A DNA stretch of 64,000 bases, from contig CAIMPI010000042.1 of NCBI GenBank assembly GCA_903843305.1, positions 4,920 through 68,919 of the forward strand, given 5' to 3'. Within the stretch, counting starts at the first letter, position 1, and each line of letters begins with the position of its first letter. The stretch comes from an uncultured Chlorobiaceae bacterium (GTDB lineage: Bacteria > Bacteroidota > Chlorobiia > Chlorobiales > Chlorobiaceae). Position numbers and translations under genes: made by a program. This document shows, piece by piece, positions 25,754 through 37,385 of the stretch. The notes beneath the pieces were generated by a model. The model worked only from the letters and a program-made list of their open reading frames with translations, did not search any database and had not been told where the DNA came from.

Positions 25754-26455
25754 ATGAAGTTGCGACAACGAACGCGGCGGGCTGGGCTCATTATACTTGT
25801 TACTGCTATTGTTTCTTTTGTGTTACTTGCTATTTATACCAATGTTCCAACCAATTATACAGCACAGGACGAGGCGGTGTTTGAGGATACTCTGCATCTC
25901 AAACCGTTAAGGCATCCTCAGACTTTTGCACAGGAGATTGAAGCAATAAAATTTATTCAGCAGGGAACATTTTTCATAGTTCCGAAAAATACTTCTAAAA
26001 ACGATCATACAGTGCGGGAGCCTGCTGAGTTCTTGGGGATGCGTGAGGGTATTTGTTATGACAGAAGTCGATTGACAGACAAAGCAATTGCGTATATTGG
26101 GCTGCCCTCACGTCATGTTTATCTTTTTTTTCGTAAAGGGGAGAGAGGATTTTTTAGCTCATTGTTTCGCCTTAAAAATCCATCACATGCGGTTACTGAG
26201 GTTAAAACCAGTGAGGGATGGATGCTTGTTGATTCAGCTTCCGATTGGATTGCTCTGACTCGTGATGGTCAGGTTGTCAACGCTGATGATGTATTGCAAA
26301 GGAGCAAAGAGTTTAACGTTATCCCTCCATATTTAGTCGGCCCTTCGTGGGCCATACGAGGCATGTACTCCCGGCATGGCCAACTCTATCCTCCTTATAT
26401 CTTCTTCCCTGATTTCAATTGGCCTGATTTTTTCAGTTGGCTTATTTTTGGATGA
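25754..26455 (+). CDS. Membrane-anchored transglutaminase-like (Cys-His-Asp) protein
   Basis: N-terminal TM helix; GICYDRS...SHAVTEVKTSEGWMLVDS matches the transglutaminase-core pattern. Confidence 0.7.
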   Translation: MKLRQRTRRAGLIILVTAIVSFVLLAIYTNVPTNYTAQDEAVFEDTLHLKPLRHPQTFAQEIEAIKFIQQGTFFIVPKNTSKNDHTVREPAEFLGMREGICYDRSRLTDKAIAYIGLPSRHVYLFFRKGERGFFSSLFRLKNPSHAVTEVKTSEGWMLVDSASDWIALTRDGQVVNADDVLQRSKEFNVIPPYLVGPSWAIRGMYSRHGQLYPPYIFFPDFNWPDFFSWLIFG

Positions 26456-26530
26456 AACTTTTTAAGGGTACCGGGAAATCTATTGAAATCGGTTAGAAAT
26501 CGTAACTATTGGCTGGTACGGTAAATGGGA

Positions 26531-27118
26531 TCAACGCATTGACTGCCAAGCGTATGAAGCTGAGCGCAAAAATGAATTATTCAACAACAAGAGATGCTTT
26601 GCTTCTGGATAAACCCTATATCTGGGAACACAAGGATAATCGACCGATAGTCTTGGTTCTGCTACAAGTCGCCTTCCGGTAAAATCATAAGCACGCCAAT
26701 GATTATTTACTTTCACTTCTACGATCGTATGATGACTTTTCCTTGTCTGTTTGTGCAATAGATCTACTAATCGCGTCTCATAGCCAAGTCGTTGTGAAAG
26801 CACAGCAATAGCGATTGCTCCCTCATCACACCAAAGCCAGTTTTTTCCCGCTGACATCAGACTCCTAAATGATTGTCCTGGGTGCACTGGTGAGCCGAGT
26901 GGTGCCTGCAGTTTTTGGTTAATAACAAAATGAAATGCTTCATCTGGATTGGAGATTTTATGCTTCAAGATCAGTTCATCTGCGTAGTGGTTGTCGCTAT
27001 ACACATAGCCAATGGCAATCACGAGAAATGCAGCAAATGAAATCACGATACCTAAAAAGCGTCGAATAGAGATTAGATCATGACCTTGATGGTACGGGGT
27101 TGCTGATTTTTTCCGCAT
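26531..27118 (-). CDS. Membrane-anchored transglutaminase-like (Cys-His-Asp) protein
   Basis: N-terminal TM helix; LWCDEGA...LGYETRLV...HHTIVEVKVNNHWRAYDFT. ATG start at 27118; the ORF track starts at 27157. Confidence 0.65.
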   Translation of the reverse strand: MRKKSATPYHQGHDLISIRRFLGIVISFAAFLVIAIGYVYSDNHYADELILKHKISNPDEAFHFVINQKLQAPLGSPVHPGQSFRSLMSAGKNWLWCDEGAIAIAVLSQRLGYETRLVDLLHKQTRKSHHTIVEVKVNNHWRAYDFTGRRLVAEPRLSVDYPCVPRYRVYPEAKHLLLLNNSFLRSASYAWQSMR

Positions 27119-27330
27119 CTTATTTTTTAATCTCCAAATACACAGGGCAACGGTCAATTAGAATAAGCACACGACTTCTCATCACGCGGTCCGTTTTAAG
27201 TGTGTTGCGTTGAGGCACTGAAAGCTAATGTACAAAAAAAAATAGAGACACTTTAAGATTTAACAAGTCATGTCCACGGGCTTGGTTTTGCATTTGAAGT
27301 AAACTTGGACTGTAGTGTCTTGTTAAAATA

Positions 27331-27633
27331 ATGCCAGTTAGTAACATCCGTTATGAAGTGCAAAAGCGGGCGACCATCATTGAGAGTATGGTCTACCTGG
27401 CCGATCGAAGCGGCTTTTATCTGCATCCCCCTTCAACGAAATCGCACATTCGCAACACGCTCTTAGCCGATAAGGTCGACAACAAAACCGTGCAAGCACT
27501 CAAAGATAAGGGGCACACCATTGAGTCCATGCGGCAAGAGGCTATGGCAGATAAGCGAGAGCAACTCCTGCAGCTCGACCAGCAAATCGCGTTGCAAACC
27601 AAAATCCTCGCTGGCCTGGCAGGTCTCCTATGA
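27331..27633 (+). CDS. Hypothetical protein with a helical/coiled-coil C-terminus
   Basis: 100-aa ORF that ends 1 nt before the next gene's GTG; no family recognised. Confidence 0.45.
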   Translation: MPVSNIRYEVQKRATIIESMVYLADRSGFYLHPPSTKSHIRNTLLADKVDNKTVQALKDKGHTIESMRQEAMADKREQLLQLDQQIALQTKILAGLAGLL

Positions 27634-27634
27634 A

Positions 27635-28027
27635 GTGGCGTTTAACCGCAAGACGAATGTGGAGCGCTAACGCTACACAGCAAATCAGCGTAACGCCCAG
27701 CGCTCGTCAGGGTCCAGAACAGACCAGGGCAAAAGGCGATCTTCCGTTAACGCCATGCAGCACGGCCTCACAATACCGGTCGAAAGCTCAGCATGGGCGC
27801 CTCTCTTGCAGTCGCTCGCAACACTGCTTGAGTTCGAGGGCATGGAAACGTCTCATGCCGGAACCCTTGCCTTATGTATCCTCAACTATGAGCGCAACCT
27901 CCACGACCAGCGTGAACGTTACCTTGGTTCGCAGAGAGGTACACAGTACAAGCCCGGTCATGCGTCCAGGTATCTGAAACGCGCAGCCAACCAACTGATC
28001 AAGCAATGCAACGGCTTGAAAAACTGA
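27635..28027 (+). pseudogene. 'ANxRNAQxSTGPRTxEGK...HGL' family protein (HGGxSTG/small-terminase-like) with an in-frame TAA at 27668-27670
   Basis: Reading frame: VAFNRKTNVER*RYTANQRNAQRSSGSRTDQGKRRSSVNAMQHGLTIPV..., continuing into the 27755..28027 ORF. Confidence 0.55.
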
Positions 28028-28036
28028 TGCGCTCCA

Positions 28037-29217
<1,181 letters not shown>

Positions 29218-29224
29218 CATATCC

Positions 29225-29291
29225 GGGAACGCCGAGCTCCAGCTCGGCACATTCTCCTCTTTTTCTGCAGAGCTGGGCCTCCGGCGTTCCC
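29225..29291. repeat. Inverted REP doublet (REPIN-like)
   Basis: GGGAACGCCGAGCTCCAGCTCGGCA (29225-29249) and a degenerate inverted copy whose reverse complement is GGGAACGCCGGAGGCCCAGCTCTGCA (29266-29291), separated by a 16-nt pyrimidine-rich spacer. Confidence 0.65.
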
Positions 29292-29446
29292 AGGTCTCTT
29301 GCACACGTTGTCCTTTTGATCATTAAATGTGTTTTGAAAGTATTTTGTTTTTACAGTCATCCCATATATATTTGAAACTGCGGAGACTGATCATGGTTTG
29401 ACATGAAAGCTATTGGGTGTCCTGAAATTGATCTTGCCTGAATAAA

Positions 29447-30427
29447 ATGCCAAATATGGATATTTCGAACGATCAATACGACAGCCCGTGGAAAGAGGTC
29501 ATTGAACGCTATTTTCCGGAGTTTATGGCGTTTTATTTCCCTGATGCTCATGCCGAAATTGATTGGTCAAAAGAGCATGTTTTTCTCGATCAGGAGCTGC
29601 GGGCAGTGGTGCAGGATGCTGAGTTGGGAAAGCGCTTTGTAGACCGGCTGGTCAGGGTGAATGTGCTGAATGGCGGCGAAAGCTGGATCTACATCCACGT
29701 TGAGGTGCAAGGCACAAAGCAAGCTGAATTTGCCGAACGGATGTTTATCTACAACTACCGTCTTTTCGATCGATACAAAAGGCCTGTAGCGAGTTTGGCT
29801 GTGCTTGCTGATGAAAACAAGGAGTGGAAACCAGCCTCTTATGGCTTTGCCGTGCTTGGGTGCCGCCATACCCTTGAATTTCCTGTTGCCAAGCTGACCG
29901 ATTATGCGGAGAAGGTGGATGAACTGCTGGAGTCGGATAATGCTTTTGGATTGATTACGGTGGCGCATATCCTGACACAACAAACCCGAAAACAGCATCA
30001 GGAACGGTATGAAGCGAAACTGCGTTTGGTACGACTACTGTATCAACGGCAGTGGAATAAACAGCGTGTCATCGATTTGTTTAGTGTTTTGGATTGGTTA
30101 ATGCAACTGCCAGAATGGTTAAATAGTCAGGTTTGGCAAGAACTTGAAACGATAGAGGAGAGTAATAAAGTGCAATATATCACAAGTGTAGAAAGAATTG
30201 GCATAGCTAAAGGTTTAGCCAAAGGTCGAGTAGAGGGCCGAGTAGAGGGCCGAGTAGAGGGCCGAGTAGAAGGCGAATCCCGGTTTCTGAGACGGCTGCT
30301 TGAACGCCGCTTTGGAGTTTTACCTCAATGGGCATCAGACCAGTTAACGAGCGCTTCCGAAAAACAGTTAGAAGCGTGGGGAGAGGCGCTTCTGACTGCG
30401 CCGACGCTGGAGGCTGTTTTCAACTGA
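29447..30427 (+). CDS. Rpn-family recombination-promoting nuclease/putative transposase (PD-(D/E)xK, DUF4351-like C-terminus)
   Basis: YDSPWKEVIERYFPEF, FVDRLVRV, IHVEVQG, MFIYNYRLFDRY and PVASLAVLAD motifs; C-terminal EG repeats followed by LERRFG.LP. Confidence 0.85.
   Translation: MPNMDISNDQYDSPWKEVIERYFPEFMAFYFPDAHAEIDWSKEHVFLDQELRAVVQDAELGKRFVDRLVRVNVLNGGESWIYIHVEVQGTKQAEFAERMFIYNYRLFDRYKRPVASLAVLADENKEWKPASYGFAVLGCRHTLEFPVAKLTDYAEKVDELLESDNAFGLITVAHILTQQTRKQHQERYEAKLRLVRLLYQRQWNKQRVIDLFSVLDWLMQLPEWLNSQVWQELETIEESNKVQYITSVERIGIAKGLAKGRVEGRVEGRVEGRVEGESRFLRRLLERRFGVLPQWASDQLTSASEKQLEAWGEALLTAPTLEAVFN
30224..30271 (+). repeat. Four tandem 12-bp units (GGYCGAGTAGAR) encoding GRVE x4 inside the Rpn gene
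   Basis: GGTCGAGTAGAG GGCCGAGTAGAG GGCCGAGTAGAG GGCCGAGTAGAA. Confidence 0.9.
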
Positions 30428-30464
30428 CCAACCAGTCGTCGGGAATTTCTCTTGCCTGAATAAA

Positions 30465-30644
30465 ATGCCAAGTATGGATACTTCGAACGATCAATACGAC
30501 AGCCCATGGAAAGAGGTCATTGAACGCTATTTTCCGGAGTTTATGGCGTTTTATTTCCCTGATGCTTATGCCGAAATTGATTGGTCAAAAGAGCATGTTT
30601 TTCTCGATCAGGAGCTGCGGGCAGTGGTGCCGGTCACTGAGTAG
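30465..30644 (+). pseudogene. Truncated second copy of the Rpn gene (59 aa)
   Basis: MPSMDTSNDQYDSPWKEVIERYFPEFMAFYFPDAYAEIDWSKEHVFLDQELRAVV, then the repeat-derived PVTE*. Confidence 0.88.
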
Positions 30645-30699
30645 GCCGACAGCTACTTCTCTCGGTCACTGAGTAGGGCGAAGCCCGTATCGAAGTGCC
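30632..30699 (+). repeat. Second tandem pair of REP-like GGTCACTGAGTAG units
   Basis: GGTCACTGAGTAGGCCGACAGCTAC (30632-30656) and GGTCACTGAGTAGGGCGAAGCCCGTATCGAAGTGCC (30664-30699). Confidence 0.8.
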
Positions 30700-30798
30700 T
30701 ATATCGCAATGCTTGTCAGGGTTAATGCGCCGACTGATGAAAATCGCAAAATTCATAGTATAATACTTGCAGATTAACATTTTGAAAATTATGATGAT

Positions 30799-31023
30799 AT
30801 GGAAACCATTATTACTATTCATATAGAAAAGCTTCCAGAAGGTTTTTATTTAGCGACCTCCGATACTTTGCAGGGACTTGTGGCTCAGGGAAGAACTATA
30901 AGTGAAACTCTTGAGATAGCTCGTGATGTTGCTAAAATGCTTCTTGAAGCGGGCCAAAAACCTGAAAAAGACTATCTTCTGGCACAAGAATCCTTTGATT
31001 ACCCCTTAGTTGTAGGCTTATAA
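30799..31023 (+). CDS. hicB: HicB-like antitoxin
   Basis: EKLPEGFYLATSDTLQGLVAQGRTISETLEIARD, a partial RNase H-like HicB pattern. Confidence 0.8.
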   Translation: METIITIHIEKLPEGFYLATSDTLQGLVAQGRTISETLEIARDVAKMLLEAGQKPEKDYLLAQESFDYPLVVGL

Positions 31024-31247
31024 TGGGGAGGCTTGCTAATCATTCATACCGGCAGATTATCAGGAAACTGAAAACTTTCGGTTTTGAATTTTACAGGCAA
31101 GCTGCCGGGAGTCATGAACTCTGGTTTCATCCTGGCAGAAAGATATTTACGACAATCCCGAATCATCCGGGAGATATGCCTGAGGGAACATTAAGAGCCA
31201 TCTTGAAACAGGCACAAATATCAGTTGATGATTTTCTTAAAGCCTGA
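31023..31247 (+). CDS. hicA: HicA-family mRNA interferase toxin
   Basis: GFEFYRQAAGSHELW..., TIPNH and EGTLRAILKQA motifs. Confidence 0.88.
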   Translation: MGRLANHSYRQIIRKLKTFGFEFYRQAAGSHELWFHPGRKIFTTIPNHPGDMPEGTLRAILKQAQISVDDFLKA

Positions 31248-31254
31248 ATGTAAC

Positions 31255-31421
31255 TGGGATGAGGCAGTTATGACTTCGCTAACTCTGGAAGCTGTTTTCA
31301 AGCAAACGAACTGCTGGCGCCGGATAATGCTTTTGGATTGATTACGGTGGCACATATCCTGACACAACAAACCCGATGGTACATCGAGAAAGCTGATGGA
31401 TAGCTCTCTCCTGAATAATCT
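31255..31421 (+). pseudogene. Chimeric scar: Rpn 3' fragment, Rpn internal fragment and fcl fragment
   Basis: 31255-31301 resembles the Rpn C-terminus (WDEAVMTSLTLEAVF). 31308-31376 matches 29921-29989 at 66/69. 31369-31421 matches 37248-37300 at 49/53. Confidence 0.85.
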
Positions 31422-31497
31422 TGTATTCCGTATAATAGTGTTAGATAGTTTTATATTAAGGGAAGTGAAAAAAGTAGAACTATTATTGAACAATAGA

Positions 31498-31725
31498 ATG
31501 AGAGAAGCAGTAATTTATCCGGGTGAAGATGGCTACTGGGTTGCAGAATGCCCAAGCCTTCCTGGTTGTGTATCACAGGGTACTTCGCGAGAAGATGCCA
31601 TAGTTAATATTCGTGAAGCAATTCATGCTTATGTCTTGGCTTTAGAGGAAGATGGATTGCCTGTTCCCTTTTTGGTAAAGAATATCTTTCTTGGTAAGGT
31701 ATCCTTACATCATTACGATCTCTAA
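31498..31725 (+). CDS. hicB: HicB-family antitoxin, orphan
   Basis: MREAVIYPGEDGYWVAECPSLPGCVSQGTSREDAIVNIREAI; no adjacent HicA downstream. Confidence 0.82.
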   Translation: MREAVIYPGEDGYWVAECPSLPGCVSQGTSREDAIVNIREAIHAYVLALEEDGLPVPFLVKNIFLGKVSLHHYDL

Positions 31726-31962
31726 ATGAATGCCATGTTAGCCAGAATTACCAGCAAGAATCAATTGACCTTGCCAAAATCTATAGTAACCTCACTTCCT
31801 AAAACAGATTATTTTGAGGTGGAAGTTGAGAATGGCCGAATCATGCTTACGCCTGTGCGTGTGCAGCAGGCAGATGCCGTGCGTTCCAAATTAGAAGCTT
31901 TGGGTATTAATGACCAGGATGTTCTGGATGCGATAGATTGGGCAAGAAAAAGTCAGCCGTGA
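31726..31962 (+). CDS. AbrB/MazE/SpoVT-family antitoxin
   Basis: LARITSKNQLTLPKSI...YFEVEVENGRIMLTPV. Confidence 0.88.
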   Translation: MNAMLARITSKNQLTLPKSIVTSLPKTDYFEVEVENGRIMLTPVRVQQADAVRSKLEALGINDQDVLDAIDWARKSQP

Positions 31963-32381
31963 GCTATCGCATAGTGCTTGATACGAACTGCATTATTTCT
32001 GCCTTGATATTTTCACGCCAGAAGATGGCATGGCTTCGTCAGAGCTGGCAGTCTGGGGCTATCATCCCATTAGTCAGCAAGGAAACGGCCAGTGAACTAT
32101 TGAAAGTGTTGTCCTATCCAAAATTCAAGCTCACAAACAGAGAGCGATTGATATTGCTGGCTGATTTTATGCCTTACGTCGAAACGGTCACTTTGCTTGA
32201 GGTGCCACCTGACTTACCTGTAATCAGAGATAAAGCCGATCAAATATTTATAACGTTAGCTGTAGTTGGCAACGCGGATGCCTTGGTTACTGGCGATAAC
32301 GACCTGCTTGTTCTTAAGGATAGCTTTAAGACTCCCCCAATAATGTCGCTCAGTGAATTTGAGCAATGGCACAAAAGCTGA
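31959..32381 (+). CDS. PIN-domain (VapC-like) toxin
   Basis: RIVLDTNCIISAL and RDKADQIFITLA..GNADALVTGDNDLL motifs; the GTG start overlaps the antitoxin stop. Confidence 0.88.
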   Translation: MSYRIVLDTNCIISALIFSRQKMAWLRQSWQSGAIIPLVSKETASELLKVLSYPKFKLTNRERLILLADFMPYVETVTLLEVPPDLPVIRDKADQIFITLAVVGNADALVTGDNDLLVLKDSFKTPPIMSLSEFEQWHKS

Positions 32382-32390
32382 AGGATATTT

Positions 32391-34262
32391 TTGATGACTG
32401 ACCTTCTGCGTTTCATGACCGCCGGTAGCGTCGATGATGGTAAATCAACCATGATCGGCAGACTTCTCTATGACGCTGACGCCCTCTATGACGACCATAT
32501 TGAAGCCTTGAGCAAAGGTGTGCGTTGCAAAGACGGCAGTATGGATTTTTCTCTGGTGACCGACGGTTTAAGGGCTGAACGTGAACAGGGAATTACCATT
32601 GATGTCGCTTACCGTTATTTTGCAACTCCACATCGTCGTTTTATTATTGCTGATGCGCCGGGTCATGAGCAGTATACCCGTAACATGGCTACTGCGGCAT
32701 CAAATGCCGATCTGGCGGTGCTGTTGATTGATGCCCGGTTGGGAGTGCAAACCCAGTCGAAGCGCCATGCGTTTATCTGCTCTCTGCTCGGCGTGCCAAG
32801 ATTGGTCGTTGCAGTAAATAAAATGGATTTGGTCGGGTTCAGTGAGTCTCGCTTTCGGGAGATTGAAGAGGAGTATCGCCAGTTTGCGCTGCGGCTTGGC
32901 TTAAAAAATCTCCAGTTTATCCCGGTTTGTGCGGTGGATGGTGATAATTTGCTGCATCGGAGCGAAAGAATGCCCTGGTATGCCGGGCCCTGCCTGCTCT
33001 CTTATCTTGAGCATGTCTATGTTGCTGGCGATCGCAATCTGGTCGATTTTCGTATGCCCGTGCAGCGGGTTGTCAGGCCCTCTTCGGCTTTTCGTGGTTA
33101 CAGTGGTACTGTCGCTTCAGGAGTGCTGCGCATGGGTGACGATGTGGTTGCTTTGCCCTCAGGGTTTCGTTCTCGGATTACCGGTATTTATCTTGGTGCA
33201 GCAGCCTTGACGCAGGCCGTTGCAGGGCAGTCGGTCACCGTCACGCTTGATGATGAGCTGGATATAGGAAGAGGTGATTTGCTGGCGCATCCCGGCAATA
33301 TTCCCCATGAGTACAAAGAGCTTGAGGTCATGGTGGTCTGGACCGGTGATGAACCACTGGTGCAGGGAAGTGTGGTGCAATTGAAACATGCCTGCCAATG
33401 GGTTAAGGCTCGTTGCGAGGCTATCTGCTATCGGGTAGATCCCGATACGCTGCGTCAGGAGCAGGCAGATGCACTCAATCTGAACGATATTGCCCGGTTG
33501 CGCCTTACCCTTTATCGCCCCATATTTGCCGATGCTTACAGTCGTAACCGCTCTATGGGGGCTTTGGTACTGGTCTCTGCCACGAGCAACGATACCCTGG
33601 GAGCTGCAACTATCCTGGAAAGAATCGATTATGATGCGGTCTTGAAGAGCGACCGTTCAGTGACTGAGCAACGCGAGATCGTCTGGCACCAGGGGCAGGT
33701 GACTCCTGCTGAACGTCAAGCGTTGCCTGGATTCAGGCATCAACCCGTGGTATTATGGTTAACCGGTTTGTCGGGTTCAGGAAAATCAACCATTGCTTTT
33801 GCCCTGGAACGGCGGCTCATCAGTAGGGGAACGCCCTGTTGCGTCTTGGACGGAGATAATATTCGTCATGGTTTGAACCGTGATCTTGGCTTTTCACCCC
33901 TTGACCGAACGGAAAATATCCGTCGTGTGGCCGAGGTTGCCCGACTCATGATGGATGCAGGGCTGATTGTTATAACCTCTTTTATCTCGCCGTTCCGGGA
34001 TGATCGTGCAATGGCTCGCTCAATCATCGGAACAGAGCAGTTTGTGGAGGTCTACTTGAACGCATCTCTTGAAGTCTGCGAGAAACGCGACACAAAAGGG
34101 CTTTACCAAAAAGCCCGAGCAGGGGAGCTTCCCGGTTTTACAGGTATCTCCTCCCCTTATGAACCCCCCGAAAATCCGTCATTAACCATCGATACCAGTT
34201 CTCTCACTATCGACACCTGCGTCAACTCTTTGCTTGCAAAAGTAACCTCTTTAAGTAAATAG
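32391..34262 (+). CDS. cysNC: Bifunctional sulfate adenylyltransferase subunit 1/adenylylsulfate kinase (CysNC/NodQ-like)
   Basis: [31 protein letters not shown] and VNKMD motifs; APS-kinase [22 protein letters not shown] and SFISP motifs. Confidence 0.95.
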
Positions 34263-36419: not shown

Positions 36420-37385
36420 GTGAAGAACAAAATATACATAGCAGGACACCGGGGCATGGCAGGATCAGCGATTTTCCGTCATCTTCAGGCTAAAGGGTTT
36501 GACATGCGGGATGTAGTTGTCAGAACACACAAGGAGCTTGATCTGACCAGTCAGATTGCGGTTCGTGCATTTTTTGAACAAGAAAAGCCGGATCAAGTTT
36601 ATTTGGCGGCAGCCAAAGTTGGCGGCATACATGCCAACAACACCTACCCTGCAGAGTTTATCTACCAGAACCTCATGATAGAGACGAATGTTATCCATGA
36701 GGCTTGGCAGGTTGGCGTACAAAAACTTTTGTTTCTTGGTTCAAGCTGCATCTACCCCAAACAGGCGCCACAGCCTATGAACGAAAGTGCCCTGTTGACA
36801 GGTCCACTTGAATCGACTAATGAACCTTATGCCATAGCAAAAATTGCGGGCATCAAACTGTGTGAAAGCTACAATCGTCAATACGGCACAGACTACCGTA
36901 GCGTCATGCCAACCAACCTTTACGGAATCGGAGACAACTATCACCCGCAAAACAGCCACGTCATTCCTGCCCTGATACGTCGAATTCATGAAGCCGGAAT
37001 TAATGGCGCATCAGTGGTTACCATCTGGGGTACCGGTACTCCACGTCGGGAATTTCTCTATAGTGACGATATGGCAGCAGCGTGTGTCCATGTCATGAAT
37101 CTTGACCAGGCCACTTACAAAGCCTGTACCACGCCGATGCAGGGTCACCTTAACATAGGCTCAGGTGAAGACATCACCATTAAAGAGCTTGCATTGACCA
37201 TAGCAAAGGTAATCGAGTACAAGGGAGCTATAGAATTTGATCCCGCGAAACCCGATGGTACCCCGAGAAAGCTGATGGACAGTTCTCTCCTGAATAATCT
37301 CGGCTGGCAAGCTGACGTGCCGCTTGAAAAAGGGTTAAAGCTTGCATACAGCGATTTTTTACAAAACAATACTAATTTCCCATGA
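36420..37385 (+). CDS. fcl: GDP-L-fucose synthase, copy 2
   Basis: Same motif set as copy 1; overlaps the gmd start (ATGA). Confidence 0.95.

Follow-up and report, generated by a model that had tools for sequence, protein, structure and literature searches.

The question raised by this locus is whether a single open reading frame (ORF) encodes one protein or two. The ORF is located at positions 29447 to 30427 of a 64,000-nucleotide stretch of DNA from an uncultured Chlorobiaceae bacterium (NCBI GenBank assembly GCA_903843305.1, contig CAIMPI010000042.1, positions 4,920 to 68,919 of the forward strand; referred to here as the window), and it had been read earlier, from the letters alone, as an Rpn nuclease gene containing a second, internally initiated antitoxin frame. 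Our analysis suggests that the ORF is likely a divergent Rpn-family gene-within-gene toxin-antitoxin system of the RpnL/RpnS kind, in which the short product would inhibit the long one. Systems of this kind are known from E. coli (RpnA-E), from a plasmid (RpnP2) and from C. difficile (Rpn), and the structure of the short protein RpnA-S, a small helical bundle whose first helix is long, is available as PDB entry 7TH0 (Zhong et al., PNAS 2023, PMC10400941). By analogy with the experiments on E. coli RpnA/B/C and C. difficile Rpn described in that study, we infer that the short protein would be produced, that the long protein would be toxic and neutralised by the short one, and that the pair might act in phage defence.

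The gene consists of the following features, given in window coordinates:

29447..30427, forward strand: rpnL-like ORF of 326 aa and 38.2 kDa, taken from the ORF list, with a predicted N-terminal PD-(D/E)XK nuclease-like domain, a helical middle region and a C-terminal DUF4351 domain
29642..29710, forward strand: putative catalytic core, D66 (29642-29644), E86 (29702-29704) and Q88 (29708-29710), with the motif WIYIHVEVQG
30155..30160, forward strand: internal Shine-Dalgarno (SD) sequence GAGGAG, 9 nt ahead of the internal GTG
30170..30427, forward strand: rpnS-like internal ORF from GTG (codon 242) to TGA, 85 aa and 9.52 kDa
30203..30274, forward strand: hypervariable tract of four-residue repeats (tetrads) encoded by 12-bp units, IAKG-LAKG at 30203-30226 and (RVEG)x4 at 30227-30274
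30257..30400, forward strand: match to DUF4351 (PF14261), residues 271-318

Every detail of the internal start described in the original prediction proved accurate. The GAGGAG at 30155-30160 is separated by a spacer of nine nucleotides (AGTAATAAA) from the GTG at 30170-30172, and this GTG is in frame, as (30170-29447)/3 = 241 makes it codon 242 of the ORF. With methionine as initiator the product would read MQYITSVERIGIAKGLAKG(RVEG)x4ESRFLRRLLERRFG..., and the 85-aa sequence with its tract of four-residue repeats is thus present as described. Tandem Repeats Finder reports CGAGTAGAGGGC in 4.0 copies at 30227-30274 and a second 12-bp unit, coding for IAKG/LAKG, in 1.9 copies at 30204-30226. Pairing of the internal GAGGAG with the 3' end of the 16S rRNA amounts to -9.5 kcal/mol, a value reached or surpassed by 0.6% of all ATG, GTG and TTG trinucleotides in the window, and in this respect codon 242 is far ahead of all other in-frame candidate starts of the gene. 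Given that there are 21 such candidates, the odds of finding a site like this by chance are about 1 in 8 from the window sequence alone, and the case made by the single sequence is only moderate; it is the comparative data that lift the internal start far above chance.

For this comparison we used 80 homologous loci from named genomes with 51-89% identity, belonging to Chlorobiaceae, Methylococcales, Rhodocyclales/Accumulibacter, a cyanobacterial metagenome-assembled genome and others, together with the two full copies in the window's genome. Codon 242 is ATG (55) or GTG (23) in all 78 loci covering the site, counts which overstate the number of independent events due to the phylogenetic relatedness of the loci. 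Analysed column by column, 66 full-length genes show 100% start codons at column 242 alone, which also has the strongest mean anti-SD pairing (-8.7 compared with a gene mean of -2.2 kcal/mol, standard deviation 1.6, z=-4.0). Relative synonymous entropy, calculated in windows of nine codons, reaches its gene-wide minimum of 0.48 at codons 234-242 (mean 0.82, standard deviation 0.08). Within this segment, codon 238 is GAG (47), AGG (13), GGG (3), GGA (2) or CAG (1), thus coding for E, R, G or Q, and is never GAA, which accounts for 61% of the Glu codons elsewhere in these genes. Because the residue at codon 238 varies while the purine-rich codon is kept, the constraint acts on the RNA and not on the protein. 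In 62 of 65 homologues the internal SD is also stronger than every SD candidate near the N-terminal start, and the window ORF's own ATG is without an SD (+0.4 kcal/mol), which is consistent with the short product being made in excess of the long one. Translation very probably starts internally at codon 242. At the sequence level, the gene resembles the RpnL/RpnS class in having both an internal start and a ribosome-binding site before its C-terminal domain.

Another internal methionine, M219 (MQLPEWL), was considered as a start and rejected: it is without an SD (-3.3 kcal/mol in the window, -2.1 on average) and, being a start codon in 91% of the homologues, is not universal. Gene callers nevertheless often choose M219 for fragments (37 of the 120 small proteins listed).

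The short frame also occurs on its own. A search with the 85-aa sequence matched 524 small homologues, and 29 of the 120 listed begin exactly at the internal methionine. On a 46-kb contig (locus L090, protein P0164, ENA ERZ27313426:k141_427375), a short gene follows 21 nt past the stop codon of a PIN gene, and all that remains of rpn upstream of its coding region is ACAATCGAGGAGAGAGAAAAA-GTG, i.e. the GAGGAG, nine nucleotides and the GTG; this GTG must be the start, because an in-frame TAA is located eight codons upstream. The gene itself encodes 86 aa with a DUF4351 domain and, within L090 2033-2761, lies directly behind a DUF2281-PIN toxin-antitoxin pair; it is an orphan RpnS-like gene inside the operon of another toxin-antitoxin system. 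At another locus (L093) a frameshift breaks the long frame but leaves SD, ATG and short frame intact. In the window's own genome, a paralogue (L002, G000:C44; 79% identical) has ATG at codon 242 with the same GAGGAG and the same 9-nt spacing. After this paralogous rpn, at L002 2583-2801, lies an ORF of 72 aa (MQNTIEIKHLSREEKLRVMEAI...) resembling an addiction-module antitoxin component; if it is one, the paralogous copy would also adjoin toxin-antitoxin genes. A free-standing DUF4351 gene was not found in the window's genome, and in the window the short frame is internal only. Four further proteins of about 105 aa (P0165, P0168, P0170 and P0225) carry another N-terminus (MSETEQLAYVRYQDDLRYQASLVESNYG...) ahead of the same tail of tetrad repeats and DUF4351, which suggests that the tail combines with other partners, probably other Rpn-like subfamilies.

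The family to which the protein belongs is indicated by both of its ends. The tail matches the Pfam domain DUF4351 with 34-37 bits (cut-off 25), as do 54 of 55 homologues, and separately encoded RpnS proteins are annotated as DUF4351 in some species (PMC10400941). In the N-terminal domain, D66, E86 and Q88 are invariant in the 55 homologues and align to D63, E82 and Q84 of RpnA (YIYCLIEHQS) and to the equivalent residues of RpnE; the putative catalytic D...E-x-Q residues of the RpnL/RpnS class are thus present. PF04754 (Transposase_31) is matched by 52 of the 55 homologues at E<0.1, with a best value of 3.4e-6 and always at the same core. Using hhalign, the family profile aligned collinearly to full-length E. 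coli RpnE (E=8e-5, residues 43-300 to 49-294, 215 columns), to RpnA over the catalytic core (E=0.0044) and to YpaA over 29 columns comprising the repeat and the following helix (E=1e-4). When the whole E. coli K-12 chromosome was searched in six frames with the family profile, just two places came up, the C-terminal end of rpnE and its neighbour ypaA; RpnE-S and RpnE-Ss (ypaA) are the two small proteins detected by Zhong et al. (PMC10400941). The N-terminal domain is probably a distant, divergent relative of the Rpn/YhgA-like PD-(D/E)XK nucleases. In an AlphaFold2 model of the full-length protein (predicted local distance difference test score, pLDDT, 82.4), an alpha/beta core at residues 63-149 is followed by helices; codon 242 is found in a loop (241-246), after which come a long helix (247-289) and short helices at 294-302, 305-314 and 321-325. 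Modelled alone (pLDDT 85.4), the 85-aa tail forms helices at residues 6-48, 53-61, 64-76 and 80-84. As the loop with codon 242 precedes the tail helices, the 85-aa product is predicted to be one complete structural domain.

Several results speak against the reading as an RpnL/RpnS system. The window protein itself scores below the cut-offs of PF04754 (18.0 bits, cut-off 21) and of the NCBIfam Rpn family TIGR01784 (18.9 bits, cut-off 52.1), and the two matches on the K-12 chromosome are individually non-significant (E 0.6 and 1.5). When the PDB was searched by sequence, neither the protein nor either family profile yielded more than spurious low-complexity or ribosomal matches, and RpnA-S (7TH0) was not recovered; Foldseek searches with the full-length model found no significant match, the weak top ones being mostly PD-(D/E)XK nucleases (E>=0.03), and those with the 85-aa model against the PDB none below E=2, again without 7TH0. 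A scan for sigma-70 promoters found none upstream of the internal start such as reported for E. coli rpn, the sole match overlapping the internal start codon itself, and PADLOC yielded no defence-system match, nor one for any of the toxin-antitoxin neighbours. Two further comparisons with E. coli RpnA-S gave little: alignment of the tail profile was uninformative (E=0.04 over 18 columns), and the DUF4351 model did not match it. The gene-in-gene toxin-antitoxin reading of the original prediction is borne out in nearly all features expected of an RpnL/RpnS system at the sequence level, but has to be qualified with respect to the nuclease domain, which is only a distant Rpn relative below the family cut-offs, and to the solved RpnA-S structure, which neither sequence nor Foldseek searches retrieved.

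The repeats within the tail are of the type described for RpnS, in which one hydrophobic residue is combined with charged residues or Gly and the first repeat lies 8-20 residues behind the methionine (PMC10400941). Here, too, each tetrad comprises one hydrophobic residue and charged residues or Gly, and the tetrads begin at residue 12 (IAKG) and residue 20 (RVEG) of the short product. Among the 120 closest full-length homologues, the segment from ...VER to LLxRLLERRFG is 13, 17, 21, 25, 29, 33 or 41 residues long, and its length thus changes in whole-tetrad steps only. A comparison of repeat number between strains, proposed earlier as a check, showed differences among alleles that are otherwise nearly the same as well as between paralogues: at 94-98% identity to the window protein, alleles have one or two RVEG units instead of four, an allele with 89% identity (L005) has six, and the tract of the paralogue in the same genome is IAKG-RVEG (two tetrads) compared with IAKG-LAKG-(RVEG)4 (six) in the window, a difference of four tetrads. 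The closest comparison is provided by the same locus from another metagenome assembly (L100), in which the gene order is as in the window (fcl, gmd', rpn, rpn', hicB-like, hicA, hicB-like, AbrB, PIN, cysNC) and which is identical to window positions 26447-33427 over 6,981 aligned columns with the exception of one indel. This indel comprises 24 bp at 30227-30250, exactly two repeat units, so that there are two RVEG units instead of four. An artefact of assembly collapse is unlikely, because the array of 48 bp is shorter than the assembler k-mer (k141 in the contig name). With one repeat indel and zero substitutions in 7 kb, the tetrad tract behaves as a fast-mutating contingency locus. It had been suggested that the system is tunable by slippage of the 12-bp repeat; repeat number does change, and slippage is a plausible cause that the data do not distinguish from recombination.

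Taken together with the published systems, these features suggest the following mode of action. The full-length 326-aa RpnL-like protein would be translated from the start without an SD, and ribosomes would also initiate at the GTG at 30170, nine nucleotides behind the GAGGAG, to yield an 85-aa RpnS-like protein corresponding exactly to the helical DUF4351 domain at the C-terminus, with the tetrad-repeat helix included. RpnL would, by homology, be a toxic DNA endonuclease; RpnS, probably in excess, would act as antitoxin by binding the identical domain of RpnL via its long, repeat-bearing first helix and thereby blocking the endonuclease. The number of tetrads might determine which short protein pairs with which long one, and gain or loss of a 12-bp unit would then re-code the specificity of pairing. 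In the published model, differing repeat number prevents cross-inhibition; similarly, six and two tetrads could keep the two paralogues of the window's genome from inhibiting each other. A trigger, possibly phage infection, would release RpnL.

An alternative that we consider unlikely is that the short protein is made internally but is not an antitoxin, acting instead as a positive subunit or cofactor like Cas11d, as a helix-turn-helix (HTH)-like transcriptional autoregulator, or as a dominant-negative inhibitor of a recombinase or of mobility. All evidence for internal initiation applies equally to such a protein; in addition, a relation of RpnS to HTH motifs was found with HHpred, Cas11d is likewise produced from an internal start in cas10d (PMC10400941), and the locus is full of rearrangement scars holding pieces of rpn. 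However, the tail is homologous to RpnE-S/YpaA and contains the tetrad-repeat helix, both of which are hallmarks of RpnS inhibitors, and the persistence of short-only copies with the long frame frameshifted (L093) or absent (L090) fits an antidote better than an obligate cofactor.

Much less probable still is the explanation that no separate product exists and that the conserved Met/Val and the purine-rich codons reflect a constraint on the full-length protein, such as an E-E...M linker motif. The GAGGAG does code for Glu-Glu in a conserved ETIEE motif, and a methionine is plausible as a conserved residue. Yet valine at codon 242 is always encoded by GTG (23 of 23, other Val codons 0), compared with a GTG share of 28% among the remaining Val codons of these genes, and at codon 238, in the part of the gene with the lowest synonymous variation, the residue shifts with the G-rich bases kept. 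Moreover, codon 242 is located in a low-confidence loop of the model, and free-standing genes begin exactly at this codon with the same SD.

The surroundings of the gene have been rearranged. Two copies of the rpn unit (29426-30443) lie in tandem with a period of 1018 nt, and the second copy is truncated:

30444..30645, forward strand: second, tandem copy of the rpn unit (period 1018 nt, identity 95%), truncated at 30632 by a GGTCACTGAGTAG pair

Arrays of rpn genes with the same pattern of tandem duplication were described by Zhong et al. (PMC10400941). It is highly improbable that the gene is a relic in decay, with the anatomy of a functional ancestor but no toxin-antitoxin function left in this scarred region, for although it is found between a truncated gmd and a truncated rpn copy, with more rpn scraps downstream, and many relatives hold fragments or stop-interrupted copies, its ORF is intact, the invariant residues, the SD and the start are all present, and the second environmental assembly is identical apart from the in-frame repeat change.

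The gene belongs to a toxin-antitoxin cluster with HicA, two HicB-like genes and a MazE/AbrB-PIN pair; on one side of the cluster is a broken fcl-gmd', on the other an intact fcl-gmd. Of 61 sampled genomes of the taxonomic family, 12 carry the gene; a genome has 0-14 matches, and many matches are fragments. The 14 matches in G055, a complete 3.0-Mb genome of the same genus, include clusters at 1.46-1.47 Mb and 2.42-2.46 Mb, and tail-only matches occur inside ORFs of 192-448 aa at 0.58-0.60 Mb, which represents a large expansion of rpn and the tail domain in this genome. An interpretation of the rpn unit as an insertion sequence or autonomous transposase was rejected, as there is no inverted-repeat pair at its ends. 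The sole inverted pair (14 nt, 86% complementary) connects the upstream leader (29244-29257) with a site inside the ORF (29656-29669), and PD-(D/E)XK proteins are not known as autonomous transposases (PMC10400941).

Pairs of units of about 33 nt with GGTCACTGAGTAG(GGC...GCCCGTATCGAAGTGCC) at 29142-29224 and 30626-30707 mark the exact cut points of gmd' (after codon 31) and of the second rpn copy; the direct GGTCACTGAGTAG units flank the region and also interrupt rpn copy 2 and gmd. As four of the five exact copies of the 13-mer in the 2.59-Mb genome are at the rpn locus, the units are not a genome-wide repetitive extragenic palindromic (REP) element. A diverged 26-nt piece of rpn (corresponding to 29647-29672) resumes at 30711-30736, and the right-hand unit pair thus looks like an insertion into rpn copy 2. 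Further downstream, at 31308-31421, a 69-nt piece of rpn (31308-31376, 96% identical to 29921-29989) is joined via AAACCCGA to a 53-nt piece of fcl (92% identical to 37248-37300), forming a chimeric scar involving rpn. The coding repeat context GGTCGAGTAGAGGGC (30224-30238) resembles the flanking GGTCACTGAGTAGGGC (29148-29163), with GGTC, GAGTAG and GGC common to both, which could be chance or could hint at a common recombination or cleavage motif. That the Rpn nuclease itself has shaped the locus and its own repeat tract seems doubtful; it is suggested by the rpn fragments at several joints, by the near-confinement to the locus of the GGTCACTGAGTAGGGC units, which mark two truncation points and have four of five exact genome copies there, and by their likeness to GGTCGAGTAGAGGGC. 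If RpnL did cut or recombine at GAGTAG-like sites, the locus would preserve natural traces of illegitimate recombination promoted by Rpn and of repeat expansion through self-targeting, which Zhong et al. raised only as speculation (PMC10400941).

The locus reveals no new mechanism; it is a well-supported addition to the examples of the one published in 2023. If read correctly, it brings a divergent DUF4351-type subfamily under the RpnL/RpnS gene-within-gene principle; this subfamily is widespread in Chlorobiaceae, Methylococcales, Rhodocyclales/Accumulibacter and others and is annotated only as 'DUF4351 domain-containing' or 'cytosolic' protein. For annotation, it provides a precise candidate for an internal coding sequence (85 aa, 30170-30427, GTG start). 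The two environmental populations differ over 7 kb only by two 12-bp units, and this natural case shows with unusual clarity that mutation is much faster in the tetrad tract than around it. What sets the case apart is its place in a divergent DUF4351-type subfamily, GTG as the start codon within the Chlorobiaceae clade, the two serial tetrad types and a polymorphism between two environmental populations that is confined to the repeats.

Compared with the Rpn systems of E. coli and C. difficile, the locus has the predicted PD-(D/E)XK domain with D...E-x-Q, an internal start that is in frame near residue 242-244 and has its own ribosome-binding site, and a putative short product that is the C-terminal helical domain, with strain-variable tetrads of the xxxG type in its first helix 8-20 residues past the methionine. 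As in those systems, there are also free-standing copies of the short gene, units duplicated in tandem, a patchy copy number, and neighbours of the toxin-antitoxin or defence type. In contrast to the E. coli proteins, the nuclease domain of the window is very divergent and falls under the PF04754 and TIGR01784 cut-offs; the tail comprises 85 aa and matches DUF4351, whereas RpnA-S has 49 aa and does not; the internal start is GTG in the Chlorobiaceae clade; two types of tetrads, [IML]AKG and then RVEG, occur in series; and no internal promoter is recognised. The internal methionine precedes the conserved E-R by seven residues here and by four in RpnE.

Truncated inhibitors made from internal starts are also found in genes of mobile elements, for example Inh of Tn5. 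Like the short product proposed here, Inh is a shorter in-frame product that shares the oligomerisation region of the enzyme and blocks it; unlike Tn5, the rpn unit is surrounded by neither terminal inverted repeats nor target duplications. Another parallel is offered by YpaA (RpnE-Ss) and the DUF4351-only proteins, which are free-standing small proteins made of an Rpn tail, whereas in the window the short frame exists only internally. YpaA contains one tetrad (KLEG) more than RpnE-S, just as the paralogues of the window's genome differ in their tetrads.

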